A DNA stretch of 64,000 bases, from NCBI GenBank assembly GCA_964016885.1, contig OZ024758.1, positions 31,186,001 through 31,250,000 of the forward strand, read 5' to 3'. The first letter of the stretch is position 1. Each line of letters begins with the position of its first letter. Position numbers and translations under genes: made by a program. Under the pieces are notes generated by a model that was given only the letters and a program-made list of their open reading frames with translations, made no database searches and was not told the origin of the DNA. Source of the stretch: Eledone cirrhosa (lineage: Eukaryota). Positions 14,161 to 63,383 of this stretch are shown one piece after another.

Positions 14161-14219
14161 TATTTTATTATACATATTTCAGTGGTATCTTCAACAGAAC
14201 GTCCTCATCAGATAAAATA
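14161..14219 (-). ncRNA. Type I hammerhead ribozyme
   Basis: tattttat-CTGATGA-ggacgttctgttgaagataccact-GAAA-tatgta-TA-ataaaata. Stem I is 8 bp; stem II is weak. Confidence 0.7.
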
Positions 14220-19743: not shown

Positions 19744-19767
19744 TATATATGTATATAAATGTATTTA

Positions 19768-20178
19768 AATGCTTTTAATTAAGCATAAAGTGTATTTCAA
19801 AATACATTATATATACATCCATAAATATATTGCTATTTCAGAGCTCCAATTCTAATTTTTAATTTCTGCCTGACCAACAACCGCTCTGCATAATCAGCTC
19901 CTGATTATTTACTAGATTTCTATAAGAATATAACATCAATGATCTCAGTAAACAGGTGGGTTAGTTGGCCTTGATAAGCTTCAACCAAAGCGAAACAAGT
20001 CTTGTCGGCTTATCTCCCCTGTTTGCTGAGATCAAAGTGAGTGAATTTGTCACTACTTTAAAACAATATCTTACGGTCTTCAAAATGCTTTTAATTAAGC
20101 ATAAAGTGTATTTCAAAATACATTATATATACATCCATATATATATTGCTATTTCAGAGCTCCAATTCTAAATTTTAA
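19768..20178 (+). mobile_element. Partial tandem (~317-bp period) HHR-bearing unit, retrozyme/pLTR-like
   Basis: 19768-19860 is repeated at 20085-20178. Related units occur at 25880-26290 and 56216-56790. Confidence 0.75.
19940..20034 (+). ncRNA. Type I hammerhead ribozyme, U3-A8 core, extended stem I
   Basis: ggcc-TTGATAA-gct tcaaccaa agc-GAAA-caa gtc ttg-TC-ggct, enclosed by tgatctcagtaaacagg/cctgtttgctgagatca. Confidence 0.85.
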
Positions 20179-20562
20179 TATATATATATATATTATATAT
20201 TTATACATATATAATATATATATATATAATATATATATATTATATATATATATATAATATATATATATTTATTTCATTATATATATTTCAGGGATATCAT
20301 ATTAACAATATGTTATGCCTTCTTCAGACAAAATACAATATAGACAGTTTTATATGATATCCCTGAAATATATATAATGAAATAAATATGGTTTTATAAA
20401 TATAGTTTCCATTTATTTAATATCGTAAATATACTCCAAATACTTGTTGAGTGCTTTTATATCAGTTATAAATATTTACTAGTTGTAACCCAACAATTTA
20501 AATATAACTTTCCATGTATCTTGCTCCAATACTGTTGAGCGCTTTATATTATAACTGAAAAA

Positions 20563-22776
20563 ATGGAATTCTTTAAGATTTCTTCCTCTTTAAAAGACAT
20601 ACCTCTACCTAGAAACAAAGACTTTATAAAACAATTAATAGATAAATCTGACTCTTTTATAAGGAGAATCAGGTGGCGAGCATTCCACTTTGATAAATCT
20701 AATATAAATGAAAATGTCTCGGACTTAAACAAAGTTTTCAAATCTAAAAGAAATCCACCCCCTAACAAACTTTTATCTGACTTTGAAAACGATATAATTT
20801 CTATCATACAAGGGGTCAAATTCAAGAGAAACTTCAAAGGCCAGGAATATCTGAAAGGCATTAAGGATAATATTGAGAGCTTAGAGAAAACTGAGAAGAT
20901 CTTGGTGAAATCTGACAAGACCAACAACCTCTATGGAGTGCAGAAAGACATGTATAATGGCCTCATACTGAAGGAACTGAGGAAAAAGTACAAGGTAGCA
21001 GATAAGGCCGAGCTTGAGAAAATGAATGTTGAAGCATCTTGTATAATGCACGAGTTGGAAATTGAGAACAGAACACAACCTTTCGTACCCAGGAAAGATC
21101 ACAAAAGGAATTTTGAAAATGACTTGCCAGTTAGATTGATCGCACCATCAAAATCGGACCTGGGCAAATTAAGCAAAAACATTCTTGACAGGGTGATACA
21201 GCAAATTAAAAACTTGGATTGTTTACCTAACCTGAGCTTGTGGAAGGGAACTGGAGAGGTTGTTGAGTGGTTTAAGCAAATTAAATATAACAATAATAAT
21301 AAGTTTATTCAACTTGATATTGCTAACTATTATTCTTCTATTACCCCTAATCTACTAAATAAGGCACTAAATTACGCATTCAAACATACAGACCTAACTA
21401 GCAATGAAATGCACATTATATTATCGGCTAGGAAAACATTGATAGAATTTAATGACCAATTATGGACCAGAGCAGATAGAGATAGCAATTTTGACATTAC
21501 TATGGGATCATCCGACTCAGCTCAGGTAACTGACCTTGTGGGCTTATTTTTAATCAATTCGCTACATAGGAAAATACCTGGTACTACCGGAGGTTTATAT
21601 AGAGATGACATGCTTTTACTTATTGATAATAATAACTCTGAACTAAATAGAAAAAGAAAACAAATTACACAATTTTTTAATTACTTTAATCTAAAAATAG
21701 AAATTGAGAACAACCATAGAATAGTCAATTTCCTAGATATAACATTAAATCTCAACACATGTCTTCACTATCCATTTCACAAGTTGAATGAAAACTTAAA
21801 CTATGTCAGCTTTAACTCTAACCACCCCAGATCTGTCAAAAACACTATAGTAAACTCTGTTCAAAAACGTATCTCTAGAATCTCGTCTAATAGAAAGATT
21901 TTCGACGAAAAAGCCCAGTACTACAATGAAGCGTTAGCTAGAGCAGGATATAGTGATAAGATTATGTACATAGATAATGATAGACAAACTAAACAAAATA
22001 ACAACTATTTTAATTACGGCTACAACCTTAACAACTATAATAGAAAGCATTACAATAATTCCAAAAGCCAAAAAAGAAATAGAACTAGGAACATAATATG
22101 GTTTGCCCCCCCTTTCTCACTAAACATTAAAACCCACATCGCTAAACTATTTTTTAAAGCTCTTGATAATCGCTTCCCTAGAACACATAGGTATCACTCA
22201 ATTTTCAATAGACATACTATAAAATTAACCTACTCATCCACCAAAAATTTAGCACAAAATATTAATAGAATAAATAATAGGAACTTAAAACCTAGCGATA
22301 ATAGCATAAATAATATACAAGTTAACAAATGTAACTGTAGAGATAGATCTAAATGTCCGTTAAATAACAACTGCTCGTTAAATAACAACTGCTTAGTTAA
22401 AAATATAATATACAACTGTAATGTTAAAACGGACTCTAATTCTTTTAACTACGTCGGTTCCACATCGACGGAATTTAAACTTCGCTATAATAACCACAAA
22501 AATTCTTTCACAGATCCAAGCAAAAAATCTTCAACAGCACTATCAGGCGTACTCTGGCAACTTAGGCAAGATAACGTTAGATATTCGACGGCTTGGAATA
22601 TAGTCTCAAGAGGGATTCCTTTTAATTCATCCTCTGAGACATGTGACCTCTGCGCGGAGGAGATATTCTTTATACTAAAATCTAAAAATTCCCTTAATCT
22701 AGGGACACATTTATTCAGTTGCTGCAAACATAGATTGAACTCAACTTTTAAATATAAATTTAAATTTAAAATGTAG
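20563..22776 (+). CDS. PLE reverse transcriptase + C-terminal GIY-YIG endonuclease (737 aa, uninterrupted)
   Basis: Motifs KSDKT, KDHK..RLI, LDIANYY, MGSSDS, LYRDD and FLDITL. The linker is CNCRDRSKCPL, followed by IIY..YVG, FKLRYNNHK and CDLCAEE. Confidence 0.92.
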   Translation: MEFFKISSSLKDIPLPRNKDFIKQLIDKSDSFIRRIRWRAFHFDKSNINENVSDLNKVFKSKRNPPPNKLLSDFENDIISIIQGVKFKRNFKGQEYLKGIKDNIESLEKTEKILVKSDKTNNLYGVQKDMYNGLILKELRKKYKVADKAELEKMNVEASCIMHELEIENRTQPFVPRKDHKRNFENDLPVRLIAPSKSDLGKLSKNILDRVIQQIKNLDCLPNLSLWKGTGEVVEWFKQIKYNNNNKFIQLDIANYYSSITPNLLNKALNYAFKHTDLTSNEMHIILSARKTLIEFNDQLWTRADRDSNFDITMGSSDSAQVTDLVGLFLINSLHRKIPGTTGGLYRDDMLLLIDNNNSELNRKRKQITQFFNYFNLKIEIENNHRIVNFLDITLNLNTCLHYPFHKLNENLNYVSFNSNHPRSVKNTIVNSVQKRISRISSNRKIFDEKAQYYNEALARAGYSDKIMYIDNDRQTKQNNNYFNYGYNLNNYNRKHYNNSKSQKRNRTRNIIWFAPPFSLNIKTHIAKLFFKALDNRFPRTHRYHSIFNRHTIKLTYSSTKNLAQNINRINNRNLKPSDNSINNIQVNKCNCRDRSKCPLNNNCSLNNNCLVKNIIYNCNVKTDSNSFNYVGSTSTEFKLRYNNHKNSFTDPSKKSSTALSGVLWQLRQDNVRYSTAWNIVSRGIPFNSSSETCDLCAEEIFFILKSKNSLNLGTHLFSCCKHRLNSTFKYKFKFKM

Positions 22777-25616: not shown

Positions 25617-26118
25617 TTATATATATATATATATATATATTTATATAAATATAAATTGAGCGAGAATCGCATTTCGGCTGGTAGAAAAAAAAGAGACGTA
25701 ACGCAAAGTCCGAGTCATATATATATATATATTTTTTTTTATATATATATACATATATATATATAGGCGGTTCATAGAGACGTTCATTTTCAGAGAACGT
25801 CTCTATGAACCACCTACTAGAATATTATTCTACGACTTCTTTTATACCATAAACTGTTTTCTGAAAATCATGAATGTTTAATTCTTATAGAATTTCTAGT
25901 AATAATCAGGAACTGATTATACAGGGCGGTTGCCGGTCAAGCAGAAATTTAAAATTAGAATTGGCGCTCTGAAATAGCTATATATATATGAATGTATATA
26001 TAGTGTATTTTGCAATACACCGTATGCTTAATTAAAAGCATTTCGAAGACATTATGCTATTGTTTTAGAGTAGTGACAGTCACACTTACTTTACATTTTC
26101 AGCAAACAGGGGAGATAA

Positions 26119-26163
26119 AGCTGACAGAGCTATGTTTCGTACTGATTGGTACTTATCAAAGCC
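26119..26163 (-). ncRNA. Hammerhead ribozyme, U3-A8 core, at the centre of the 25992-26288 fold-back
   Basis: ggct-TTGATAA-gtac caatca gtac-GAAA-ca tagctc tg-TC-agct. Stems covary with the copy at 19967-20010. Confidence 0.85.
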
Positions 26164-26286
26164 AAGTACTCCACCTGTTTGCTGAAAATTTAAAGTGAGT
26201 GAGTCTGTCACTACTCTAAAACAATAGCATAAGGTCTTCGAAATGCTTTTAAGCATACAGTGTATTTCAAAATACACTATATATAC

Positions 26287-29690
<3,404 letters not shown>

Positions 29691-33150: not shown

Positions 33151-33603
33151 TCTCTATTCTCATCTGCTTCCGACAAAACATTCTGCTCAAATTTTAGATT
33201 TTGCTTGTTTGTATATTTGTTTATTTGTTTGTTTGTTTCTTACTACATAAAATGTATTCCATTGTTAGAAGCTTTAGTATATCTATTTAACTACATATTT
33301 GTTTTCTAACTGTCGCTCTGCTTCTTGCAACCAAGCCAATCATCAAATCATACAGCCAGCCAACCAGCCATCTAACCAGTCAATCATCCAGACAACCAAA
33401 CATCCAGTCAATCAATCAATTAATGCAACCAACCACATAACGTTTTGCCTGCATGTATGCCTGATTGCGTTGAGCTTATAAGTTGAGTGTAATAAAGCTA
33501 TTATTTCTAGCACAACCACTCATACCATGTAGAGCTTACAACCCACGAGGTGTATGTTACGCCTGTGAGTTGTTGTTAGATGTGTTTTGTTTCATTTGAT
33601 CTT

Positions 33604-33692
33604 ATCTCTCACTGAGGAAAGCCTACGGCTTATCTGTTACAAACACAATTTTCAGGGCGAAACAGATTAAATCTCTAATCTGTCCGAGAGAT
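33604..33692 (+). ncRNA. Type I hammerhead ribozyme with full stem III
   Basis: atctctca-CTGAGGA-aagcct...gggc-GAAA-cagatta aatctc taatctg-TC-cgagagat. There is an A.C mismatch at 2.1/1.1. Confidence 0.75.
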
Positions 33693-33919
33693 GAAATGGT
33701 TATTGATACGGTCTGTATAAATTCTATATCTCACTGTATGATTCAGATTAAATATATAAAACATTTGTGGTATAGCTACCCTCGTAATTTTAGACACAGA
33801 ATTCTCTGTGTTTATTTCTACATATATTATTATTATATATATACATATGCAACAAGATACATTTTTTTTGTTCTTATGTCAAAAGTATCAACCCTGATTT
33901 CATTACAGTCACGGAAACA

Positions 33920-35735
33920 TGGGCACATTCCTTGTGATGGAGTTTTCAGCATAACTGGCTACAACTTGTTTCGTAAAGACCGCATTAATCGTGGTGGTGG
34001 TGGTGGTGGTGGTGTAATGGTTTGCGTTCGGTCAAACTTTTCAGCAATCACTTGCATTGATTTGAACCAATCACAACAAGAAGTATTTTTCTGCTATATA
34101 CATATGACCACGTCAACACTGCTACTTGGAGTTTTTTACCGCCCCCCAAATTACTATTCGGACAAACAGCTTTTTGGTATCCTCAGAGCTGCTGCCAGGA
34201 AAACAGCCACTTATGTTTTTATTGCAGGGGACTTCAATCACTCTGAGATTAATTGGGAAACCTTTCGTTGGCCGCAAAGAACAAATGATTTCCTTGAACT
34301 AGTGCTGGACTCGAACTGGTCCCAAGTAGTCACCTCCCCAACAAGAAGTGACAACACTTTGGATCTATTCTTTACCACTTCTCCTGAAACGGTTATTAGT
34401 GTTACTACTGAGGAACCTTTAGGTGACTCTGATCATGCTATGATCATTACCAATCTGTGTCTCTTGTGGGCAGTAACAAAAACCACAACCATCTCCAAAA
34501 TGCTCGCTTTGACTGTAATAAAGCAGACTGGAACTATTACTGCACCGAGCTGCAACACCCAAACTGGCTTGAATTTTAAGACTCTGGGTATGTGAACACT
34601 ATACTTCAGAACATCCTGAACTCAATATGGACTGCATGTGCAGCATCAGTTCCACATAAGTAGAACGCCCCCCAGCCCCAGTACAATTTGGGAGACTGCA
34701 GCGGTCCGACTTGCCAGGAAAGAACGTCGTAATTCTGAAAGGGAATACGAACTGCATAAATCAGATATCAATAGAAAGAAGTGAAATAAATCATCCAGTC
34801 ATCTCAAGCAGGTGACAAAAAGGCGGTGCTTGAATTTGAACAGCGCATAGCAACCAGCCCTGACAGTAAGGTGTTCTGGAAATATGTACATTCAAAGCAG
34901 AGACCTCACTCTCCAGTCGCTCCTTTTCGCAATCCCCACGCAAACCAGATTACTGACGACCCCAAGAAAAGCACAATACTAAATGCTATGAAGGCATTTT
35001 CACTATTGAAAACCAAAACGTATCATCTCCACCACCTCTGACATCAAATTCTATAAAACCTTCATTGCTGCGACGTCACCTTAAAAATAAACGCAACCAT
35101 GTCTCTCTTGGTCTTGATGGTGTTGCGTACCTGCTTCTCAAACGTGGTGGGTACTTCCTTCTGCACCAGTTATCACTCTTCTTTTAATTCTGTCTTAGCA
35201 ATGGTGCTACTCCGGAGCAGTGGAAAACTGCCAGTATCATTGTTCAAAAAGGGTGACTGCACGTCGCCTGTTAACTATCGTCCAGTCTGTCTTACTAGCT
35301 GCATTGCCAAACTGATGGAATCCTGTGTCAGAGAAACACTCTGGAACTTCTGGAATTCTCACAGTCTGGATGTATTCTCACAATTTGGATGTATCCCTAA
35401 CTCCAGCTGCTGTGATCAACTTATCGAGTTTCCTGAAGACATCACCCGGATCACTGATGGCGGTTCATGGGTGGATGTTGTTTACTTTGACTTTACGAAA
35501 GCTTTCAATTCTGTGCCACACAAAAGGCTTATGGCAAAACTCTCTGCAATGGGTGTGAAGGATGATCTTTTTAACTGGTTGAAGTCCTTCATTCTCAGTC
35601 GAAGAGAGGTAGTCACGGTTCTAGTACAGCATTCCTCACCATATGAGATGTCATCTGGTGTACCACAGGGATCTGTTCTTGGCCCCATTTTGTTTGTGGC
35701 ATATATTAATGACATATATGCCAACTTAAAGAATG
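33920..35735 (+). pseudogene. Decayed CR1/L2-group LINE ORF2 (APE + RT)
   Basis: APE motifs GYNLFRKDR..GGGV, YRPP, GDFN, PTR..N.LDL and SDH. RT motifs NYRPVCLTS, DFTKAF and GVPQGSVLGP.LF..YIND. It has stops and frameshifts and is cut by microsatellite before the catalytic DD. Confidence 0.85.
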
Positions 35736-35781
35736 CATATATATACATATATGCATATATACGCGCGCACACACACACGCT

Positions 35782-36588
<807 letters not shown>

Positions 36589-38616: not shown

Positions 38617-39027
38617 CATGGTGGCTGCCAACTCGTTTTCGAGTACGGTCACTACTTTATATCCATGTAGGAGAACCCCTACCGATGCGCTGAACGCGTG
38701 TAACTTTTTAGTCCAGCCAGCGACTTGAAAACTCTGGTACAAACACTACGCTTGTGACAATTATTGACACATAGTGCTAGGCCCATGGTACCATGTGACG
38801 ACAAGTGCAGAGAGATCTCCAGATATAAAGCAATGCCTGTGCCGTGAAGCTTTTATAGTGAGCAAAGGCACTGCACAAAGCCAGTCCCACTCTCTTAACC
38901 AAGATGATATTTACCAAAAAGAAGTACAAGTCAACATCATTGGATATCATGAGGGTTGCAGGTGTTATATCAGAGTTTTCCTTCTCCTAGAATTCTGCCT
39001 TGACAAAGGCTAAGGGGTCATCTCTCC
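38617..39027 (-). mobile_element. RTE-derived bipartite element (5'-truncated copy of 36868-37275)
   Basis: Near-identical reverse complement, with a (TACA)n flank. Confidence 0.8.
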
Positions 39028-39162
39028 AATACATACATACATACATACATACATACATACATACATACATACATACATACACACACACATACACACATAC
39101 ATACATACATACATACATACATACATACATACATACATACATACATACATACATACATACAT

Positions 39163-41012
39163 AAAGTCCCACAACCATTGGTAGCTGCTGTTGAACGCCT
39201 GACCAAGAACTGGTACACCAGTTTGATCCTTAGAGGTGAGAAGGAGCAGGTTAAGACTGATAAGATACATTACCAGAAGGGCATCTTTCAGGGTGATGGC
39301 TTGTCAGTGCTACTCTTCGTTCTCTCACTGAATCCACTATCTTACCTACTCAGGAAACAAGGTCGACAAAGAAGTGGGACCAGAAGTATCTCCCATCTTT
39401 TCTTTGTTGATGACCTGAAGTTGTATGGGCCAAATATCAATGACATCAAGAAACAATTGGACCTCATTACACAATTTTCAACCGACATCAAAATGAAATT
39501 TGGTGAGTCCAAGTGTGCATATTTGGCAGTAAAACGTGGAAGAGCTGTGCCCTCCTCTAGAAATCTAGAGATGAACGGCCTGACAATACAACCTCTGCAG
39601 TCAGGTGACAACTACAGATATCTTGGACAGGATGAGAATGTCAGATATGATGGACCCATAAATAAGGAGAGAACCAGAACTGAATACCTCAGAAGAGTAA
39701 AGAAAATATGGTCATCAGAACTGTCAGCATACAACAAATACATTGCCCACAATACTTATGCTGTGCCAATTCTAACGCCAACATTTGGCCTACTGAACTG
39801 GTCATTGCAAGAACTAAGTGAGATGGATGTTAGAACTCGAAAACTTCTCAGTGTTACTGGGAACTTTAACATCAATGGTGATGTGGATAGGCTATACTTC
39901 TCACGCAAGGAAGGTGGCCGGGGTCTAAAATCAATATTAACAACATATGAGACCCGGATAGTGACACTGAAGCAACACCTTCAACAGAGGAAAAAGGTTG
40001 GCAACCATCTTGCCCAGGTTTATGACCATGAAAAAAGAAATATCATTAGAATAGCGACTGATCTGGAGGAGAGATATGGAATAAAGCCCGATATAAATCT
40101 CTCACCCAGAGAAATCGGAAGATCCTATTCAATGTTCAAACAAGAAAAAAAAATTGACCAATTTACAGAAAAAGTTGTGCATGGATACTTGAGGCGTAAA
40201 ACACAGACCATAGAGGGGATAAACCACTCAAAAAGCCTGGCATGGAGTTCCGACAAGTTTATGACATCACACCTTGAGGGATATCTCTATGCAATACAGG
40301 AACAAGAACTCCCTACCAAATATCTGCTGCACAAAAGAGGAGGGCCAGCAGCTGACAATAAATGTAGGCTATGTAAAACAAAGATCGAGGATGTAAGCCA
40401 CATTGTTGCCAGCTGCGAAAGAATGTCATCTCGCTACTACCTCCCCATGAGACACGATGGGATAGCTAGAACCATCTGGAACGCACTTCGGAAAACAAAA
40501 TCAACAACAAACGAGGAAGAATATATTGAGACAGATAGCACTAAGGAATACTGGTGGAACCTGAAAATAAAAACTGCCACCAAATTAAAGCACAACCGGC
40601 CTGATATTGTAGTTTGGGACCACACATTGAAAACGTGTTCTGTTGTGGAGATCAGCTGCCCACTTGATGTAAACGTTGTCAGAAAAATACAGGAGAAGGA
40701 GGACATCTACGGACCATTGATGAGGAGTTTACAAATCCAGTATCCAAGATACACCTTTAGCTTCATACCCATCATTATTGGTGCTACGGGTTATATACCA
40801 ACCCGCTTGGACCAAAGTATGACTGAACTTGGATTTGCGGACAAAAAGCGCAGCTCCCTAATTCATAGTCTACAAATGGCTGCGATAGCTGGCACCTTCA
40901 AAATTTGCAAAACATTCTTGCGATTCAAGGGATGACAATTTCTTTTCTTTTACAACCTTGCCACCAGGAAGGTGGCCGGTCAAAAAATATACTCAAAATT
41001 AAGAGAAAGAGA
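39163..41012 (+). mobile_element. 5'-truncated R4/Dong-like RLE non-LTR retrotransposon; ORF 39178-40935 open
   Basis: RT motifs GIFQGD, HLFFVDDLK and YRYLG, a CCHC knuckle CRLC..ED..HI...C, and RLE motifs RPDIV..EIS..K. It is flanked by (TACA)n. Confidence 0.9.
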
Positions 41013-41027
41013 AAACATACATACATA

Positions 41028-41400
41028 AAGTTGATGGCTGCAACTCAATTTCGAGTAATGCCACCACTTGATACTTAAGCTTGAGCATCATGGATGTCGC
41101 TTTTTAGTCCTGTTAGGGACTTGCCTAAGGCCAGCAATACCCTGAATCGCAAAAAAGTCACATATCAAGCGATGCCTGTTCTTGAAGCTTTTTTAAGTGA
41201 GGAAAGGCTTTGCACGGATCAATCCCACTCTCTGAACATCAAATGCATTTTCCCAAAAAGCAGAACTGGTCTACATCATTGGATACAAACGATGTGGCAG
41301 GTTTTATATGGGAGTGACCTTCTCCTAGAAAAGAAAAGGAGTCTCTCGTTCCACAAAAAAAAAATTATTGGATGGCCAATGATTCTCCTGCGGAGGAACA
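41028..41400 (-). mobile_element. RTE-derived bipartite element, second subfamily (3' end also at 36585-36657, +)
   Basis: The minus strand has ctaggagaagg, ggactaaaaagcgac, a 3' hairpin and a (TATG) tail. Confidence 0.65.
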
Positions 41401-41624
41401 TAAATACATACAAACATCTAAAACCATACATACATACATGATGGCTGCCTCCTCCTTATCGAGTATGGCCATTGCACGAGGAGAAAAAAATATATATATT
41501 AATAGATAAATAAAAAAATAAAAAAATAAAAAAAAATAAATATATATATACACACATACATATACATATATACACACACATATATATATATACACACACA
41601 CATATACATTAATAACAATAATAA

Positions 41625-41807
41625 TAATTGTTTCTACTTTAGGCACAAGGCCAGCAATTATCCAGTTCATAACTGGTACTTTATTTTATCGACCCCGTAA
41701 GGATGAAAGGCAAAGTAAACCTCGGCAGGATTTGAACTCAGATCGTAAAGGGACGTAACTATGCTGGAAAGCATAGCGTCCGACCCTCTACCGATACTGC
41801 CAATCCA
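41625..41807 (-). mobile_element. tRNA/Deu-Nin SINE
   Basis: Same family as 10576-10759. Confidence 0.85.
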
Positions 41808-41894
41808 AATAATAATAACAACAATAATAATATACATATATATATACACACACACGCACACACATAAACATATCTATACACACACACACACGAT

Positions 41895-42515
41895 AGCAAC
41901 TAACAGCGCTGCGAACGAATGTAGCTTTTTAGCCCAGCCAATGATCTAAAATGTCTTGCACAGAGTCGGCAACCAAAACATTCACTGGGAATAGTCGGCT
42001 GTGGTTGGAGTTCGTGTACTTTTGTATGTCGCTTGAGTCCTCCTGCTGATTTACATTCTCTACCACATGTTTGGCAAGCATGATGAGTAGCATCTCCAAC
42101 AGCAGCCTGGTAGTCAACCACTGGTCTTACTTTATGACTGCGAAGATGACTTTCGAGTCCAGCTTTGCTTAGGCAGAGTCTCGTACAGACGCTGCATGTC
42201 AGCACCATAGGAGGACCCTCGCCGTCTGGAAGTGCAACAGCATTGCCCTTCCTCACATCTCGCTTTACTTTCTCGTATGCGATTCGAGATGCCTCAAAGG
42301 CAACTTTTCCCTCATATATAGTCTTTCTCCATTTATTATGATCAGCAGCAATATTTTCCCATGTATCAGCAGAGATGTTAGCGTCTTTCAAAGAGGCTTT
42401 CAAGGAATCCTTATACCTCTTTTTTGGTTTATGTGGCGGTCGTTTTCCTTTAACCAACTCTCCATAAAAGAGTTGTTTTGGTATTCTAGAATGCTTCATC
42501 CTGGCAAGGTGACCA
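41895..42515 (-). pseudogene. 3' fragment of RTE-clade LINE ORF with three C2H2 zinc fingers
   Basis: GHLARM..SRIPKQLFYGEL..GKR...PKKRYKD, then CSVC..HLRSH, CQTC..HTKVH and a degenerate CRLC finger. Confidence 0.85.
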
Positions 42516-42540
42516 CATACATACACACATACATACATAC

Positions 42541-45487
42541 AAACATCTAAAACCACGCAATCAAGATACAAACAAAAGGCCTGAATCAGTATGGATGCGA
42601 AATCTAAAAAGTAAAATTTTGTCCCTCAGACGAAGAATCTCACACATCGCAGTCGTTATGAAATGCAACATAGAGAGCAACTTCACACGACACCAGGAAG
42701 ACCTAAAAAAAACTTAGAGAGACGATTTGGAGATACAAAATTTAAAACTTTAAACTCCAAATTACACCAGTTGAAACAACAACTCACAGCTTCAACAGAA
42801 AGACTAAAATATAAGTCAACAGCAGAAATGGACTCTATTGATTGTATTACGTTTTCTCATGTATTAGGGTATAAATATTGAGTTTTCTCATAAGTTAATC
42901 ACTACCTTGAACGACAAGTGCTAAATAGATTGTTTGCCAGAGATCCTAAATCAGTTTATCGCAGCTTCGGTGGCAAAAGCTCAATCTCTGTAAATGACAC
43001 CCCTTCAAAGGAACAGGTTGAGAGCTACTGGAGATCTGTATGGGAAACGGATGACGGATTCAACAGACAAACTAATTGGCTAAAAGAACTGGAACAGGAC
43101 TACTGCCAATATGTCCAGACAAAACAATATGACATAGATGGGTCAATACTGGAAACAGCTCTACAGAAAATGTCGAATAGGAAATCACCAGGCCCAGACC
43201 TCATTACAGGATACTGTTTGAAGAATTTCACTTTCTATCGGCAAGATCTCATACGGTTGTTTACAGAAACCATTAAAGGCACACAAGAACTGCCCAGATG
43301 GTTATCAACTGCCACTACTCTCCTCATTCCCCAAAATAGCCAAACCACCCTTGCTAAAAATTACCGCCCAATAGCCTGCCAAAACATGATCTATAAATTA
43401 TATACTGGGTGCCTTAACCTGTTCTTACAGGATCACTGTGCTACCAACAACATCATAACATCTGAGCAAGCTGGTGGAAAGAGGGAGGTGTGGGGTTGCA
43501 TAGATCACCTACTAACTAATAAAATGATTCAAGAAAAAACAACAAAGAATCGCAGAAACATGACTGTGGTGTGGTTGGACTATCAAAAATCATTTGATAG
43601 TGTACCTCATGGGTGGATTGTTAAGGCTTTACAGTTAGCCAAAGTCCCACAGCCACTGGTAGCTTATGTTGAACGTCTGACCAAGAACTGGTACACCAAT
43701 TTGATCATTAGAGATGAGAAGGAGCAAGTTAAGACTGATAAGATACATTACCAGAAGGGCATCTTTCAGGGTGATAGCTTGTCAGTGCTACTCTTCGTTC
43801 TCTCACTAAATCCACTATCTTACCTACTCAGGAAACAAGGTGGACAAAGAAGTGGGTCCAGAAGTATCTCCCATCTTTTCTTTGTTGATGACCTGAAGTT
43901 GTATGGGCCAAATATCAATGACATCAAGAAACAATTGGACCTCATTACACAATTTTCAACAGATATCAAAATGAAATTTGGTGAGTCCAAGTGTGCATAT
44001 TTGGCAGTAAAACGTGGAAGAGCTGTGCCCTCCTCTAGAAATCTAGAGATGAACGGCCTGACAATACAACTTCTACAGTCAGGTGACAACTACAGATATC
44101 TTGGACAGGATGAGAATGTCAGCTATGAGGGACCCATAAATAAGGAGAGAACTGAATACCTCAACAGAGTAAAGAAAATATAGTCATCAGAACTGTCAGC
44201 GTACAACAAATACATTGCCCACAATACTTATGCTGTGCCAATTCTAACGCCAACATTTGGCCTGCTGAACTGGTCATTGCAAGAACTAAGTGACATGGAT
44301 GTTAGAACTTGTAAACTTCTTAGTGTTACTTGGAACTTTAACATCAATGGTGATGTGGATAGGCTATACTTCTCACGCAAGGAAGGTGGCCGGGCTCTAA
44401 AATCCATATTAACATCATATGAGACCCGGATAGTAACACTGAAGCAACACCTTCAACAGAGGAAAAAGGTTGGCAACCATCTTGCCCAGGTTTATGAGCA
44501 TGAAAAAAAAATATCATTAGAATAGCGACTGATCTGGAGGAGAGATATGGAATAAAGCCTGATATAAATCTCTCACCCAGAGAAATCGGAAGATCCTATT
44601 CAATGTTCAAACAAGATGAAAAATTGACCAATTTACAGAAAAAGTTGTGCATGGATACTTGAGACGTAAAACACGGACCATAGAGGGGATAAACCACCCA
44701 AAAAGCCTGGCATGGAGTTCCGACAAGTTTATGACATCACACCTTGAGGGATATCTCTATGCAATACAGGAACAAGAACTCCCTACCAAATAGCTGCTGC
44801 ACAAAAGGGGAGGGCCATCAGCTGACAATAAATGTAGGCTATGTAAAACAAAGATCGGGGATGTTAGCCACATTGTTGCCAGCTGCGAAAGAATGGCATC
44901 TCGCTAATACCTCCCCATGAGACACGATGGGATAGCTAGAACCATCTGGAACGCATTTCGGAAAACAAAATTAACAATAAACGAGGAAGAATATATTGAG
45001 ACAGATGGCACTAAGGAATACTGGTGGAGCCTGAAAATAAAAACTGCCACCAGATTAAAGCACAACCGGCCTGATATTGTTGTTTGGGACCACACATTGA
45101 AAACGTGTTCTGTTGTGGAGATCAGCTACCCACTTGATGTAAACGTTGTCAGAAAAATACAGGAGAAGGAGGACATCTACGGACCATTGATGAGGAGTTT
45201 ACAAATCCAGTATCCAAGATACACCTTTAGCTTCATACCCATCATTATTGGTGCTACGGGTTATATACCAACCCGCTTGGACCAAAGTATGACCGAACTT
45301 GGATTTGCGGACAATGAGCGCAGCTCCCTAATTCATAGTCTACAAATGGCTGCGATAGCTGACACCTTCAAAATTTGCAAAACATTCTTGCGATTCAAGG
45401 GATGACAATTTCTTTTCTTTTACAACCTTGCCACCAGGTAGGTGGCCGGTCAAAAAAATATACTCGAAATTAAAAGAAAGAGATAAC
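42541..45487 (+). mobile_element. Longer, disrupted copy of the R4/Dong-like RLE element
   Basis: ORF pieces 42918-44183, 44235-44525 and 44917-45405 nearly match 39178-40935. The 3' UTR is the same, and the flanks are (TACA)n. Confidence 0.9.
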
Positions 45488-46617
45488 ATACGTACATACA
45501 CACACACTATTCCGAAAATATCCATCCACAACTTCCACCTTATGTGAACAACTTAAATCAATCGAAAGCTTACGATGGCGTCGACCAGCGTTAGTCTTTA
45601 ATGCTTCGAATCAGTTTTCAGAAGATGAATTGCTGCAATGTTCAGCGGCATTTTCTCTGTAGTCAGAGTGAACGGTCATCTCTCGGAACCGTTCGACATC
45701 ATCCGCTCAGTCAGCCAAGAGCGTCTCCGTTCGTCCCTGCTGTACGTACTGACTCTATGTGTTACTACTGAACAAATTAGAGATGTTGAGAAGCATCCCG
45801 CGCGAACTAGAGTGTGATATATGCGTGGCACCATTGAGCTGATCGGCACCTATCTGAGGGAATATGAAGCGGACACGGGAAATGTAGGTGGGCCTGCGGC
45901 TCGTCACTTGGTGAGGCAGGTTCATGCCGTTCAACAGCAGGGCGACAAAATGGTCCTGTACACACTCGTCCACTGTCCGAACATTGCTGACTTGTGGGTT
46001 TATGTAGAACACCTGCTGTCACGTGTAGAACTGTGTAAGTCAACTTATACAGCTTCGTATGCAAATGGGGTTACTCAGCTCACCTACACACGAAAAAAAA
46101 CTATCGCCCTAGGGGAAGCACTGTCAGGAGCTTGAAATGCAATAGACACTTGTCACCCGCTGCTTCTGCCGGAAGCTAGACGGCACTAGCAGTCAACCTT
46201 TCAATATTCGTAGCTGGCTATCAAAATGTCTATTCATTAAACATACCGTAGATCTTTATATATACGAAATTCACATACTTGTATGTATACGGCTATGTCG
46301 GAGCTAAATGTATATATATATATATATATTTAAACTCCACTTCAATCCCTACAAAATCAATATAAAATAAAACCCTTTAAGGAATACTTATAAATACAAA
46401 ATATCAAGCAATTAACTTTATTCATCAGATATATTTACTGTGAATAAAATATTGATTGATTCTTGATTAGTTGTAGTGTTAAAGTTAAGTAACACGTTTC
46501 ATCTCCTATGTTATGTCTTACTTTCTTTTTCAAAACATGAAAATCTTACCTTGGAATGTCTTACCAATACATATTTCAGTCATTTTAAGCAATTTATCAA
46601 CAATTGTCTACATCATC

Positions 46618-49081: not shown

Positions 49082-51723
49082 GGAAAGTTATATTTAAAAT
49101 TGTTGGGTTACAACTAGTAAATATTTATAATATTTATAATATTTATAATATTTATAATATCAAAAACGTATCTCTAGGATCTCGTCGAATAGAAAGATTT
49201 TCGACGAAAAGGCCCAATACTATAATGAAGCATTAGCTAGGGCAGGATATGCTGATAAGATTGTGTACATAGATAATTGTTTCTACTTTTGGCACAAGGC
49301 CAGCAATTACCCAGTACATTACTGGTTCTTTATTTTATCGACCCCGTAAGGATGAAAGGCAAAGTTAACCTCGGCGGGATTTGAACTCAGACCATAAAGG
49401 GACGTAACTATGCTGGAAAGCATGGCGTCCGACTCTCTACTGATACTGCCAATCCACCGTCCTATTGTGTACATAGATAATGATAGACAAACTAAACAAA
49501 GTAACAACTTTTTTAATTACGGCAACAACCTTAACAACTATAATAGAAAGCATTACAATAATTCCAAAGGCCAAAAAAGAAATAGAACTAGGAACATAAT
49601 TTGGTTTGCCCCCCCTTTCTCACTAAACATTAAAACCCACATCGCTAAATTATTTTTCAAAGCTCTTGATAATCGCTTCCCTAGAACACATAGGTATCAC
49701 TCAATTTTCAATAGGCATACAATTAAATTAACCTACTCATCCACCAAAAATTTAGCACAAAATATTAATAGAATAAATAATAGGAACTTAAAACCTAGTG
49801 ATAATAGCATAAATAATATACAAGTTAACAAATGTAACTGTAGAGATAGATCTAAATGTCCGTTAAATAACAACTGCTTAGTTAAAAATATAGTATACAA
49901 TTGTAATGTTAATACTGACTCTAATTCTTTTAACTACGTCGGTTCCACATCGACGGAATTTAAACTTCGCTATAATAACCACAAGAATTCTTTCACAGAT
50001 CCAAGTAAAAAATCTTCAACGGCACTATCAGGCGTACTCTGGCAACTTAAGCTAGATAACGTTAGATATTCGACGGCTTGGATTATAGTCTCAAGAGGGA
50101 TTCCTTTTAATTCATCCTCTGAGACATGTGACCTCTGCGCAGAGGAGATATTCTTTATACTAAAATCTAAAAATTCCCTTAATCTACGGACAAATTTACT
50201 CAGTTGTTGCAAACATAGATTAAACTCAACGTTTAAATATAAATTTAAATTTAAAATGTAGTATATTTAGTTTGATTTATATTTATATGGGAAACTAGCC
50301 GATAAATTTTTGATTCCTTAAATTTTTGATTCCTTCTTTTTATTCTTTTTTTATTGTTTATTTTAATTTTATTTTTATTTAAACATTCCTCAAGAAAAAT
50401 TAAGCTACCCTAAAAGCTGATGCTCCAAATATTTTGAATAAACCTTACACTAGATAAACTTCTATATTAAATATAAGAACACATGTAGACCAATTCGGAC
50501 ATCATAAACTTTTTGAAATGATCTTTGCTAGATGTGATTTGATAGATAATTTTTTAACTTTGTCTTATAATGAACTTGGCAATATATTGTCAATTAATTT
50601 TGAAGGGTTGATCTTTGTGGTTTATTTTTATTTTTATTTTTATTTTTATTTATTTTTTATTATTGTAGTATTTTATAATATTTTTTATTTTTATTTTTAA
50701 TATCTTTAATATGTAAAAAATTTTTAATACGTAATATATTTTTTAATATGTAATATTTTTAATATGTAATATTCTTTCGTAATATTTTTTTAGTTTTCTA
50801 TTTTATTATTACTTATTATTATTATTATTGTTATCTTTTTATTTTTTTAGTTTTGTTTCTGATATATATTTTATTAGTATATTGAAATCTGCTCTCTATT
50901 TCTGCTTGATAGATAATCTTGTAAAGTAAAGACGGGAATAATAATACACATATATGTATACTCAAATTTTTATACCACATTTTTTATACCACATTGAGAA
51001 TGTTTTCCGTGAACTTAGAGTTTGCAGAGTTGATTTTTTTTAAAAACTAAACATAAGATAATTAATTTTCACACACTATGGATACTTGTCTCATTCAGGA
51101 ATACTGATATTTACAATATGGTGGAAGTTTTATAAATACTTATAAATACTATTACATTAAAACATAGGGTTTTTACGCCTCGAATATATCTGGCTATTTT
51201 TAAATTTTTTCTCTCGCTATTTTTTCTCTCTATATATATCTCCCTTACATTAATACTAGAGCTAAATAAATAAATAAATAAATAAATGTATCATTGATAC
51301 ATTTACTGAACTGACCTCCCACTACCTAATTTTCTATATATATATGTATCTATCTCTATTTCCTCTCTCTCTCTATATATATATATCTTTCTGTTTCTTT
51401 ACATGGAGTTTCTTCTCTTTATCTATCTTTCCATCTCTCTATTTTGTTCCATGCATTTCTTCTTTTTCTTCCTTTTCTTCGTTTTCTGTCTTTCTTTCTT
51501 TTTTCTCTCTTTCTTTCTCTCTGTGTAAAATTTTTTCACTGCCTGTTTTAACCTCTCCAAATGCAAGTCGGTGTTATTACGGTATGTCGAATATATTTAT
51601 CTATAAAACTGTTTATATTGTATTTTGTCTGAGGAAGGCATAGCATATTGTTAATATGATATCCCCGAAATATATATAATGAAATAAATATGGTTTTATA
51701 AATATAGTTTCCATTTATTTAAT

Positions 51724-52699: not shown

Positions 52700-55600
52700 A
52701 CTAAATCTGGAAAAAGAAGCTTTCAAAAAAGAAATCAAATGAAAAATATTTGCAACCAATTGCTAAGTCAAAGAAAACAGGCATACTGGAAAGCCTTGAG
52801 GAATGAAAACCTAGCGGACACATACGAGATATGGCGAAGTAAGGAACAAGTTATCCTCCCGAGAAAATTCCGAATTAAAGAGATAACATCGGAATCAAAT
52901 GAAGAAACCAAAATAAGACTAAATCTAGCACTCCAGAAACTTGAGACAGAAATCACTTTACTCCGTCTAAGAGTGACAAAATTCAAAGGAAAACTTGAAA
53001 AGTGCAACTCCACCATTAGAGAAGAAATAAACAAAAGAAGCAGCGGCAATGTACGGGAAAACCCCTTTGACGAATGGAAAACCGATACAACCAGATAGGA
53101 ATTAAAATCAAAGAAAATATTGGAGTCAAGAACACAATGGCTACAAGAATATGAAAAGAATTATGGGAAAGACCAAATAAAATCCAAAAAACAAGCCCAT
53201 CAGAAAACCCTCAAATTCAGGAATATTCAAAAACACAAGAAATGAAGAACTCTCACGCAATAAACAAACATCAACCAGAGATCGGAGAATCCCAAACACA
53301 CAATTATACAGAAACCAAATACTAAACACTAGAACCAGATACAACTACTGTCAAAACCCCCAAGAACAATTACCAGCGGCAAAATCAAAGACATCTGAAG
53401 ACTGAACGGAACAACAGAAGAACCAGACCCCCCATATATCAACAACCAAACAAGATCCTACCGTTCAGAAAATTATCAACATGAAATACCAGCGAACAGA
53501 ATATTTCACCACAACAGAAACACCGCTATCTCAAATAGGAATTATTTTTTAGGACAAGATGCCTTCCACCAAATGAAAGAAAAAATTAAAAAAACACAAC
53601 CCTTCAAGTGGCACTTGACGAGAAAACCCCAAAGGAACCAAAAATAATCAACTTATCAGCCAAGAAACTAACACAACAGGAAATGAAATTGTTAGAAAAT
53701 GGGCTAAAGTTCACACCCACTCCAAAAGCAGATCAAGCCGACCTTATAAAAGGCACAGAAGATTCTTGTCGAAAATTACGTCTAGAATTCTTCTGGGGTG
53801 TAGAATACTAGGAGGAATCACTAGTAAGAAACACAAAAACTTCGAAACCCCCGTTAAATAGAGATAAACACCTGGAGGAATACATAACCTGCCTACGACA
53901 ACGGGCACAGTCAAATATTGCAGAAACGAAACACAAACGCAACATTCTTACAGACCAACTGCTAGCACTAAACAAGCTACAAAAAAAACTCCTCAATAAT
54001 CATAAAAGAAACTGACAAAGGTGGAGCAATCGTCATCATGGACAAAAGCCACTACAAGGATATAGTCCTGGAACAGTTGAGTAACGAGGGTTTTTACAGG
54101 GTTTTTATCAGCAAAAACGAAGAAAGAAAATCAATGATTAAAGTAGCTAAACTGACAATAAAGTACCAAAATAACCTCACGCTAAAGGAAATCAACCAAC
54201 TTCGAAATGAAAACCAGCAATTTTTATGAATTGCCGAAAGTTCACAAATTCAGAGAAATTCAAAACAACATAAAAGGCAAAAATACATCATATGTTGTAC
54301 CAAAACCGACATATTTAAAATCACGCCCAATTATTGCTGATCCAGCCTCAATCACATAACGTCTAAGCAACCTATTAGACATCATACTGAAAAGGTGGAG
54401 CATCCAGAGATGATATGGAATTCCCAAACTATATCCCCAGAAAGTACACCAAGAAACAATCTTAATCAGCTTTAACATAACAAGCTTATATACGAACATC
54501 CCGCAGGACTTAGGAATTGAAGCTGTTGACTTCTGGATTACAAAACACCCAGACTTCATTTCAGAGAGATTCCCCAAAACGTTTATTTTGGAAGGACTCA
54601 AATTAGTATTGGAGAACAACCACTTCCTTTTTGATAAAAGGGACGGCCATGAGCACCAAAATAGCCCCAACATATGCAACACTCGTTATGGGTCACCTAG
54701 AGGCAAAATCATATTCCGAGCTGCAGGAAACATTCAGTCATGACTTCGCCACCTACATTAATCACAACTGGAAATGTTACCTAGACGACTTCTTCATCTT
54801 CTGTAATAGGAGCCAAGAAGACCTGCAAAGATTTTATTCCATCATAAACAGTCTTCACGAAGCAACAAAACTTACCATGGAATTTAATAAAAAGGAACTA
54901 CCGCTTCTGGATATCCTTATTATAAAAGACGAGGAAAATATCAAAACAGACCTATTTTACAAAACAACAGACACACACCAATACTTGAATTTCCGATCAG
55001 CACACCCTTCACATACCAAAAGGAACATTCCCTTGTACATGGCAAGACTCATTTGCACCATAGTAACACACCCCACACTACTGGAAAAAAGATTATATTA
55101 ACTAAAAGAGTTCCTTAAAAGATAAGAATATCCGGTGAACCTCATCAGTGTGGCCATCTCCAAAGCCCAAAACATCCCAGTGACAACACTGAAAAAAACA
55201 AACCAACAAAATAAAAGGGAAAAAACAGTTATCCCTTTTGACTCACAATCTAAGAAACTTCAACATTGTGAAAGCCGCCGCTAAACAATATCTCCCGATT
55301 CTCCAGCAGTCCCCCAAAATGAATGCACTCATAAAAGACTCACAAATAATATATAGAAGACACCAAGCACCCAACCTAAAAAAACTTATTAACAAGGCGA
55401 AATTTATTTCTAACAATGAAACAATGCAAGTTAATAAATGTGGAGACCCTCGATGCGGAACTGGTGAACACATTGAAGAGGGTGAACAAATCTCCTTTAA
55501 AAACAATGAGATTTTCCAAGTTAATGCAAACATGAATTGCAAAACAAAAAACTTAATTTACTGTGCTACCTGCCCACAATGTAAAGGAAACTACATTGGT

Positions 55601-55810
55601 GAAACCGGAACGGGTCTACATAACAGAGTTCGAGTACATAAACAACAAATTAGAGATCCCTCTGTCAGAAACACCACATGCAGTGAACACTTCGCTTCAT
55701 GCAGAAAGGGAAAATTCGCAATCTTCCCCTTCTTTAAGATATGGTGGGAAAACGAACATTCCGGAAATATAGAGAAGAATTCTTCATTAGAAACCACAAA
55801 CTACTACTGA
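52700..55810 (+). pseudogene. Decayed Neptune-like PLE ORF (RT + GIY-YIG)
   Basis: GLKFTPTP, AMSTKIAP, CYLDD, TDTHQYL, CGDPRC and IYCATC..C..YIGET. It has many stops and frameshifts and is homologous to 27232-29411. Confidence 0.88.
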
Positions 55811-56215: not shown

Positions 56216-56787
56216 AATAGGATTGGTGCTCTGAAATAGCGATGTAAACATGAATGTATGTATAGTGTATATGATAATATACCGTATGTTTAATTAAAAA
56301 CATTTTGAAGACCTTGCGCTATTATTTTAAAGTAGTGACTATTTCACTTACTTCTTTTTTCGGCAATGGAAGGGAGAGAAGCTGATTGTTGGTGTTCCTC
56401 AGAGCATCGTACTCCCCGCCTTTGCCGAAAATTATAGAGGCTGGATTCTTATAGAATTCCAGTAATAATCTGGAACTGATTATACAGAGCGATTGCCGGT
56501 CCAGCAAAAATAAAAAAATAGGATTGGTGCTCTGAAATAGCGATGTATACATGAATGTATGTATAGTGTATTTGGTAATATACCGTATGTTTAATTAAAA
56601 ACATTTTAAAAACAATTTTCGGCAAAGGAGGAACACCAACAGTGTGAAACAGAATCTGTCAGCTTCTCTCCCTTCCATTTCCGAAAAAAGAAGTAAGTGA
56701 TATAGTCACTACTTTAAAAATAACGCAAGGTCTTCAAAATGTTTTTAATTAAACATACGGTATATTGCCAAATATACTATACATACC

Positions 56788-56790
<3 letters not shown>
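56216..56790. mobile_element. Tandem (~301 bp) plus inverted HHR unit related to 19768-20178
   Basis: 56216-56306 is repeated at 56517-56607 and inverted at about 56660-56790. It has two complementary half-deleted HHRs. Confidence 0.75.
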
Positions 56791-56840
<50 letters not shown>

Positions 56841-56847
<7 letters not shown>

Positions 56848-57290
56848 ATATTAACAAATGGAAACTATATTTATAAAACCATATTTATTTCATTATACAT
56901 ATTTCAAGGGCCACCAAGGCAGATTATGGTGCGCTTTCATCAGAAAAATATAATATAGATTAGTTTTATAAATAAATATTGACGTACCCTGAAAAAATGC
57001 TACCTTCACGGTTGGAGTCTCCTGGATACTCCAACCGTGAAGGTTGCATTTTTTCAGGGTATGTCAATATTTATTTATAAAACTAATCTATATTATATTT
57101 TATCTGATGAAAGCGCACCATAATCTGCCTTGGTGGCCCTTGAAATATGTATAATGAAATAAATATGGTTTTATAAATATAGTTTCCATTTGTTAATATA
57201 TTGTATATTTACTCCAATAATTTGTTGAGTGCTTTATATCAGTTATAAAAATATTTTGCTTGCTGTAGCCCAACAAATTAAATATAACCT

Positions 57291-61005: not shown

Positions 61006-63383
61006 CACTGGTCAACAAGTATTTTTCATCAAGCATATATTAAGGTGTACTTAGTGTAGTTTTTAATGCTGAATTCAAATATACAATTAGTTTTTTGACA
61101 TCACGTACATTTTTCAAGATGAGAAAGTTTTTTGGTTTTAACTAATGACGTGTATGCATGTATTCCATTTACATCATGGAAACATACCTTTAAAATAAAC
61201 TACATTATTCATTGCTGAATAGTTCAGATGCAATATTTCATCATCTTAAATTTACCAATCAAGTTTTTTCTGATGAAATAGGTATTTCCACATCTCAAAT
61301 TGTCCAGTCATAATTGGTCTAATGAAATATTACATCTCAAATTCAATATAAGTATAACTGTTTGTATCTATTTCCTTACTTGTTTTACAGTGTTAACAAT
61401 GTCAAGACAGTGTAGAAATCGTCTTGGTGTGTTTTGTTGTCTGTGGACAATTTATTGTGAAAGCTCAAAAACGTACAATAACACCAGAGACCAAGAAGAT
61501 TTATAAGCTCTACTTTGACTGTCCTCTTGGAGATCAGGACAAGTTATGGGCACCACATTTTATCTGCTCAGCTTGCTCAAATGGCTTACGTGACTGGCTC
61601 AATAAGAAGAGGAAGTCCATGCCTTTTACCATTCCAATGATATGGAGGGAGCCGAAAGACCATTTCAATGACTGCTATTTTTGCAAAGTAAATGTCACAG
61701 GATTTTCTATGAAGAATAAACACAAAATTGTGTATCCCAATTTGGATTCTGCAATGAGACCTGTGCCTCACAATGGAAGTCTACCAATTCCAGTTCCACC
61801 AAATGATGGTATTCAAACATCAGATGATGATGTTGACTGTCCCGATAGTGCTGCTGAGGAAGATTACATGGCTTATGACGATAGCTTTGAACCTCAGATA
61901 TTTTCCCAAACTGAACTGAATGACCTTGTCAGAGACCTATCCCTCTCAAAAGATAAAGCAGAACTGTTGGCACCAATACTGAAGGAGAAGTATCTGCTAG
62001 AGCAAGGTGTTCGTATAACTTATTTTCGGCAGAGAAATGTGGTTCTACAAACGTGTTTTTCTGTTGAAGGCCCGCTTTGCTTTTGCAGTAACATCGATGG
62101 ACTTTTCGAATGTTTATCACAAAATCATGATCCTGCAGAATGGCGTTTGTTTACTGACTCTTCAAAACGAAGCTTAAAAGCTGTACTTCTCCATAATGGT
62201 AATTTGAAGCCCTCCATTCCTATTGCACACTCCGTTCATATTCATGAATCATATGAGAATATGGAACTTTTACTTCATGCCATTGCCTATGAAAGATACT
62301 CATTGAAAATATGTGGAGATTTAAAAGTCATTGGAATGTTAATGGGAATGCAGTCAAGTTTCACAAAATACTGTTGTTTCTTGAGTCTATGGGATAGTCG
62401 GGCAACTAACAGACATTATTCGGAATCAAAGTGGCAGACAAGAACATCATACCAGCCAGGACTGTCTAGCGTCAAGAATGCACCTCTTATAGATCCATGT
62501 AATGTCTTATTGCCTCCTTTGTACAAAGCTTGGGCTGATGAAACAGTTTTTAAAGACACTAAGGAAGAGAAATGCCAGAGGGTTTGAATATATTGTAGAA
62601 AAGTTTCCCAAAATCATACAGGCGAAGTTGAAGAGGGTATCTTTGTCAGACCCTAAATTAGAGAAGTACTCAAAGATGTCAAGACAACACTGGATGAACT
62701 GGACACTTCAAGACAACACTTCAAGACAACACTGGATGAACCGGAACTGCCTGGAATGCTTTCAATTTGATCTGTGAGAAATTCTTGGGCAACAAGCAAT
62801 GGTCTACAAAGATGGCATCAAGAATCTTCTGAAATATTACTCAGCAATGGGTTGTCGCATGTCAATGAAAGTTCACTTCTTGGACTCCCATCTGGATTTC
62901 TTCACAGATAACCTTGGAGCAGTGTCTGATGAACATGATGAAAGATTTCACCAAGACATTAGTGCTATGGAGAAACGGTACCAAGGCTTCTAGAATGACA
63001 GTATGCTGGCTGACTACTGTTAGACACTTTGCCGTGATCAACCAGATCAGGAACACCGCAGGAAATCCAAATCACAATGTTTTTAACTCCGTTGTTCTAA
63101 CTTGGTCTGTTTTGTCGGACCCATTTTTTGTGTATTCACTCTCTGTAGAATAATAGTGATGATTTTTAACTCAAACTCATTTACTTTCTAAAAATAATAT
63201 GTCCTTATTTATTACGTTAATGATTTCATATCTACAAATATGTAAATATGTGCATGTATCTACTGAAAGACTGATACATGCTGCATACAAATGGAGTGAA
63301 ATTTTGAAATCAGCACGAGAAATTAGTCTATAAAAGTTGGTTTGCATTCATGAGTATAATACATTTAATTTTGTTGACCAATA
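61006..63383 (+). mobile_element. Chapaev3-like (CMC superfamily) DNA transposon
   Basis: taa|CACTGGTCAACAA ... TTGTTGACCAATA|taa, i.e. an imperfect TIR with a 3-bp TAA TSD. There is also a subterminal IR, tgctgaattcaaa/tttgaaatcagca. Confidence 0.75.
61399..63075 (+). pseudogene. Frameshifted transposase
   Basis: CG..LGDQDK.WAPH..C..C, WREP..H..DCYFC, WRLF.DSS, CGDLK, MSMKVHFLDSH and SDEH.ERFHQDI. Confidence 0.8.

Follow-up and report, generated by a model that had tools for sequence, protein, structure and literature searches.

The finding of several diverged, hammerhead-bearing regions in a short stretch of the Eledone cirrhosa genome raises the question of which RNA was copied into DNA at these sites, and by which enzyme. 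The window analysed is the whole stretch of 64,000 nucleotides from position 31,186,001 to 31,250,000 of contig OZ024758.1 (GCA_964016885.1). As a family it is ordinary, since the element type, the U3-A8 core of its ribozyme and its one-sided tail have all been published before. Its worth is that of a natural record: hundreds of near-identical, multi-unit and two-armed insertions can be used to ask what RNA serves a Penelope enzyme as template and where the inverted arm and the tail come from, steps that are unsettled in the accessible text of the papers cited below. We suggest, with a probability of about 0.6, that the hammerhead element is written into (TA)n by the reverse transcriptase-endonuclease of a Penelope-like element (PLE), which would extend both ends of the break on one uncleaved multimer. 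If true, the multimer reading puts in doubt the circular template assumed so far for animal retrozymes, and yields a prediction that the available in vitro PLE assay could address directly.

An earlier note on this DNA had claimed three members with homologous flanks, and the homology is clear: member 1 matches member 2 at 82-87% and member 3 at 74% (E 6e-60 to 3e-63). A fourth, distant member was absent from that note (Table 1). The unit, numbered u1-u316 from 19767 onwards, occupies 19767-20082 in member 1, which ends at a long end (u97), sits between (TA)n runs and contains no ORF of 130 aa or more. The two partial tandems of about 300-320 bp reported before are members 1 and 3, with periods of 316 and 301. 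Member 2 is an inverted pair rather than a tandem, its arms being joined via the natural stem around the hammerhead and its minus arm having an atypical outer end at u189.

Table 1. Features of the hammerhead family in the window (positions of the window; u, position in the unit).
Feature	Position	Strand	Description or basis
Member 1, subfamily A, one-armed insertion	19767..20179	+	316-bp unit plus 97 bases of the next
Type I hammerhead, member 1	19967..20010 (motif 19971-20006)	+	motif inspection, Rfam, covariation
Long stem with the hammerhead at its tip, member 1	19938..20036	+	predicted folds
Short-end site (u54-64), member 1	20120..20146	+	AU-rich hairpin with CAUCCA loop (predicted)
Optional tail of 26-33 bases leading to the long-end sites (u90-97), member 1	20147..20179	+	
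Member 2, subfamily B, minus arm	25854..26185	-	complete U3-A8 hammerhead 26163-26119 (motif 26159-26123)
Member 2, inverted arm (u248-316, u1-64)	26169..26300	+	short end in (TA)n
Member 3, subfamily C, minus arm	56218..56613	-	partial tandem, long end, CTGAGGA with internal deletion
Member 3, inverted arm	56614..56800	+	short end in (TA)n; hammerhead without the start of its core
Fourth member, subfamily F, distant	46114..46331	+	long-type end in (TA)n, hammerhead core deleted

Members 1 and 2 contain complete type I hammerheads (core N3-UGA-N-N8-A, GAAA, NUH, three helices, open at helix I), both with UUGAUAA and GUC. Member 1 has stem I GGCC/GGCU, the U3-A8 core at 19971-19977, stem II at 19978-19991 followed by GAAA, and a palindromic stem III at 19995-20005, and the predicted cut falls after the GUC at 20006, that is, after u240. 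All stems and cores quoted by the earlier note are present in the window sequence, but a hammerhead in all three members is not: member 3 is incomplete, and its column of stems and core was a composite of two deleted inverted arms. The minus arm keeps CTGAGGA without the 3' side of stem II, GAAA and most of stem III (AUC remains), while the plus arm keeps GAAA...GUC and has lost the start of the core. CTGAGGA hammerheads are intact (C3-G8) in copies elsewhere in the genome. The Rfam model HH9, which describes one specific family, gave 25.9 bits for member 1 (E 1.2e-4) and 18.2 bits for member 2 (E 0.022), both under its gathering score of 52. Among the 150 matches listed in a scan of the whole window with Rfam, only microsatellite-driven miRNA matches were found.

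Pattern and similarity searches covered the 3.0 Gb genome. An exact pattern for the member 1 hammerhead gave 616 matches genome-wide and that for CUGAUGA relatives gave 281, with 0 for the reversed control in each case. The 316-bp unit is non-coding and dispersed in (TA)n, and at least 7 subfamilies were recognised (the letters A-G are labels of this analysis). Copies of subfamily A are 97-99% identical and scattered; mean identity to A is 0.78 for B, about 0.70 for C and D/E, 0.55 for F and 0.46 for G. Units also stand head to tail in arrays of 9, 26 (L081) and 106 units, the longest spanning 33.6 kb (G000:C3:114922971-114956614; L290-L294), and higher-order repeats in both the 26- and the 106-unit array indicate local expansion. 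The 106-unit array begins at u245, four bases past the predicted cut site, and has no TA flanks. It was ruled out as the source of the dispersed copies of the same haplotype, since nearly all its units carry variants absent from them. No PLE ORF is present in the copies spaced by 2.6 kb at G000:C2:133.63 Mb. Both ends of L002:1140-1790 are flanked by a direct repeat of about 30 bases, which may be a target-site duplication. Among sites of subfamilies F and G (L317-L366) preselected for a near match, 6 of 11 in F and 9 of 13 in G carry an exact ATGCAAAT octamer upstream of the hammerhead, compared with none of 91 A-E sites. This octamer may have a link with the snRNA-type promoters of newt satellite 2, for which a literature search gave no confirmation.

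In the fetched family loci, 356 hammerhead motifs were found. Among 16 variants from subfamilies A-E, two-sided changes occur in 8 of 18 pairs and 90.9% of cells pair. This score is reached by 0 of 500 shuffles, a test that related sequences inflate, and slid controls have at most one two-sided pair. The proposed covariation in all stems and at the 3-8 pair therefore beats both controls, but with few independent events and unevenly, two-sided pairs being 1 of 4 in stem I, 4 of 4 in stem II and 2 of 5 in stem III. When F and G were added (17 sequences, with stem III misplaced and only stem II and the 3-8 pair countable), the 3-8 pair was C-G in 8 and U-A in 8. At least two switches of this pair are required on a tree built without the ribozyme columns, which the bootstrap only partly settled. 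In every subfamily, the most frequent stem III is self-complementary and has 8 to 16 bases, and one A haplotype (37 copies) swaps a stem III pair while keeping the palindrome. As to the claim that the ribozyme is functional, what speaks for it is solely its conservation among mobile source lineages, and many array units have broken cores or stems. Selection on mobile source copies, rather than a host function, is the most likely cause of this conservation. A U3-A8 core and a palindromic helix III are known from PLE hammerheads (PMC4209133): the core covariation resembles that of the Schistosoma Cercyon hammerheads, and the self-complementary helix III, as in the palindromic ones, is suited to dimers. 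Unlike in the accessible text of that study, the 3-8 pair here switches repeatedly within one family, and helix III is palindromic in spite of its length. Cutting by the hammerhead is probably slow, or takes place in a dimer formed via the palindromic stem III. Of 9 Xenopus elements, 8 did not cleave (10.64898/2026.07.22.740005).

In all likelihood, the element is a non-LTR retrozyme working like a non-autonomous Penelope element. The retrozyme-like nature given by the earlier note is borne out by the 316-bp tandem units, the 26- and 106-unit arrays and the covariation: a non-coding tandem unit within 150-450 bp has the hammerhead in consecutive units, and dispersed copies coexist with PLEs in the same genome. 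Metazoan retrozymes likewise have one type I hammerhead per unit, low GC and copies from monomers to long arrays, in host genomes with PLEs, and they were already proposed as non-autonomous PLE derivatives (PMC7229834; 10.64898/2026.07.22.740005). The genome has at least 150 GIY-YIG matches. No autonomous PLE, with an RT and GIY-YIG ORF continuous with the repeat, was found in 277 family loci, and an ORF-bearing PLE ending in the unit, the check suggested before, was not seen in them: no PLE ORF end runs into a unit, so these copies are not plain PLE 3' ends. Likewise, no pLTR homology to the unit was found in 80 ORF-bearing PLE loci (30 GIY-YIG, 30 of the PLE family at 27.2-29.5 kb and 20 with long ORFs), a small sample of the 10,597 GIY-YIG candidates; these loci contained the family only as separate neighbouring insertions.

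The link with Penelope comes from the insertion ends, a signature (inverted arms, two fixed ends, TA targets) that adds to the earlier note. Outer ends fall at two places, short (S, u54-64) or long (L, u90-97). In subfamily A, 55 of the 57 classifiable two-armed insertions are L+S, 2 are L+L and none is S+S (binomial p 1e-14), and L+S pairs make up 20/20 in B, 7/7 in C and 6/7 in D/E (33/34 for B-E). In total, the two head-to-head arms end differently, one short and one long, in 88 of the 91 two-armed insertions that could be classified; 20 more (10 in A, 10 in B-E) were unclassifiable. Among one-armed A copies, 12 end long, 12 short and 2 elsewhere. AT-rich or microsatellite targets are seen as TA flanks in the family loci whose flanks were inspected. 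Two other ORF-encoding PLE families of this genome, which we take to be Neptune-like from the cysteine linker before the Pfam GIY-YIG domain, have L+S ends in TA in 4 of 4 two-armed insertions (L307, L310 and L315 with ORF, L142 without).

As expected for a non-autonomous PLE, there is an inverted 5'-truncated arm and an optional tail at one end, the latter being a PLE trait (PMC8557442; PMC3846280). EN+ PLEs share these features, together with partial tandems, AT-rich targets and a hammerhead upstream of two start sites (PMC8557442; PMC3846280; PMC11167929), but they differ in having an ORF and a minimal hammerhead form instead of full stems I-III. In vitro, a PLE enzyme cuts and extends both target strands, uses unprocessed RNA and has two internal start sites bounding the tail (PMC11167929). 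By analogy, the short-end site, a predicted hairpin, may be the first start of reverse transcription, and the long-end sites the second. For published retrozymes, the accessible text does not analyse insertion ends, which here follow the PLE tail rule; on the other hand, it reports expression and circles, while the present analysis covered genomic copies.

Both arms very likely come from two primers on one RNA. Of 27 informative insertions (23 were uninformative), 22 have the same haplotype markers in the first units of both arms, against a mean of 1.5 and a maximum of 8 in 2000 shuffles; the other 5 pairs mismatch, two of them fully. Arm lengths are uncorrelated, with 41 of 55 pairs differing by more than 100 bases, and the longer-reaching arm may be of either end type (31 and 24 of 55). 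Arm junctions show an overlap of 1-8 bases in 28 of 55. In L032-L053, the natural stem around the hammerhead is a recurrent junction of B arms, and the hammerhead may lie on the long or on the short arm; the query for this set selected for that junction.

Regarding the template, only 2 of 160 5' ends fall at the cut site (u236-246), and this lack of a pile-up makes a cleaved linear monomer improbable. Of 110 arms, 25 cross at least two cut sites, although arms that cross the hammerhead are over-represented, the loci having been picked by similarity or by exact patterns around it. Overlapping fetches of one insertion were dropped before counting, as were the 26- and 106-unit arrays for the variant spectrum. 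Eight variants in 6 insertions are common to units of the same rank from each tail and missing from another unit: A188G in L003, C290A in L087, A229T and T236A in L221, T205G in L227, A43G and A49G in L231, and C298A in L285. In the informative cases, these variants argue for an uncleaved multimer over a monomer circle as the putative template, and such multimers are probably the usual template. A search of the literature, with subscription journals and supplements outside its reach, found no description of in-register variants in both arms.

The circle model was proposed for retrozymes in PMC7229834 and repeated in 10.64898/2026.07.22.740005. Applied here, the template would be a monomeric circle of about 316 nt, made by hammerhead cleavage and ligation, and the in-register variants would come from later conversion. 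Circles were shown for coral, mussel and axolotl retrozymes and proposed as templates (PMC7229834), the unit folds well (z -7.3), and a circle also accounts for the L+S pairing, the common haplotypes, the multi-unit arms and the missing pile-up at the cut site. A circle is equally compatible with most multi-unit insertions, which are homogeneous, and 50 variants covered at least 3 times occur in every piece of their insertion. Another 42 variants occur in some pieces only, and a monomer circle cannot yield the in-register variants, because other units of the same insertion lack them; these insertions need a heterogeneous multimer. Moreover, where tail and centre registers differ (L003, L087 and L221), all three follow the tail. 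The two shared changes of L231 are A>G substitutions in a predicted hairpin, separated by six bases. Of the six insertions, only L087 and L221 are incompatible with a dimer circle. Later conversion between arms at a low rate could give the 8 variants, given 197 unshared versus 90 shared variants in the tail register, and L152 (truncated end), L176 (two haplotypes in one arm) and A186G of L285 are out of register. On balance, we consider the monomer circle rather unlikely.

Still less probable are the other three explanations. If the inverted arm were a fold-back, self-primed copy, as proposed for the inverted junctions of rotifer PLEs (PMC3846280), or if the arms came from two independent RNAs, it would be understandable that many B copies join at the natural stem and that L176 and L285 mix haplotypes. 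But the uncorrelated arm lengths, the occurrence of either end type on the longer arm and the short overlaps at the junctions disagree with a fold-back, and with independent templates roughly half of the insertions should be L+L or S+S and haplotype matches should be few, whereas 3/91 and 22/27 were seen. This largely refutes both versions for most insertions, leaving them very little probability. An origin of the copies as pLTRs, the truncated ends of an ordinary Penelope element with an ORF, is slightly harder still to maintain: their ends, tail and TA targets match PLEs in a genome rich in PLE ORFs, but units follow another unit upstream, in arrays of up to 106, and a same-strand PLE ORF end within 1.2 kb upstream is always separated by a TA run or an inverted arm. 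Finally, a co-option of the hammerhead RNA by the host has a nearly negligible probability. The structure is kept across subfamilies only 46-78% identical, but the near-identical A copies are scattered, members 3 and 4 of the window are broken, and mobility alone accounts for the selection.

Under the multimer reading, tandem copies would be transcribed into multimers, and a PLE protein acting in trans would bind the hairpins downstream of the hammerhead and cut both strands of an AT-rich target. Synthesis from one DNA end would begin at the short site, and synthesis from the other at the long site, which lies 26-33 bases downstream (3') on that RNA; both cDNAs would read back through the predicted cut site. 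They would then join head to head, often via a microhomology of a few bases, and some insertions would later expand into satellites by local duplication. Circles may form, being unneeded to explain these insertions.

One arm of L176 (1378-1997) changes haplotype at a junction missing about 16 bases, which suggests a template jump. The variants present in both arms include 29 A>G versus 3 T>C (8 versus 2 distinct sites), and the sites are mostly within the long stem, which would tolerate G-U pairs. They are a weak hint of RNA editing.

A possible off switch, in which the hammerhead core would pair with stem III, is a lead rather than a result. For A-E, RNAalifold chose a helix of N1.1-N3-U4-G5 with the 5' strand of stem III over stems I and III; it pairs in 96.9% of cells and has two two-sided pairs, both on the A branch. 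Among the representatives, the predicted helix is strong in 7 of 11 from A-E, partial in member 2 and absent from all 4 of F/G. One of its pairs is broken in one A haplotype and in member 2, and the CAUGUCAUG haplotype is without the off helix. All 15 representatives favour non-hammerhead folds by 3-13 kcal/mol in an energy model that ignores tertiary contacts, and since F and G do so without the off helix, folding energies cannot show that the hammerhead is off. As a tentative extension, which we hold to be somewhat doubtful, a Penelope protein pair might load both cut (TA)n ends onto one uncleaved multimer at the two fixed starts. Every two-armed insertion would then be two in-register copies, the covarying core-stem III helix would restrain the hammerhead, and circles would be a by-product.

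The window also contains a separate hammerhead family in inverted-repeat insertions, at 14211(-), 20327(-), 24176(+), 57104(+) and 63980(-), with an inverted pair at 56850-57197. It has CUGAUGA or CUGAAGA after tattttat, an 8-bp stem I and a cut at AUA or similar. A hammerhead-like inverted pair with a long stem II lies at 2133(-) and 2715(+). A 745-aa frame at 20539-22776 (+), with a partial copy at 49161-50261, is PLE RT-endonuclease-like without a Pfam match, and may belong to a 'Hydra clade' PLE. Two broken Neptune-like PLEs were found at 26718-29552 (-) and 53635-55810 (+), the former with its own CUGAAGA hammerhead and two alternative 3' ends. In an ORF-bearing PLE family (24599(-) in the window; L297, L298, L301, L307 and L315), the terminal hammerhead is also U3-A8 (UUGAAAA), with a tail of about 66 bases. 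Other transposon-like frames, at 39004-45405, 33600-35899 and 61397-62587, are by appearance LINE-type RT fragments and a cysteine-rich frame.
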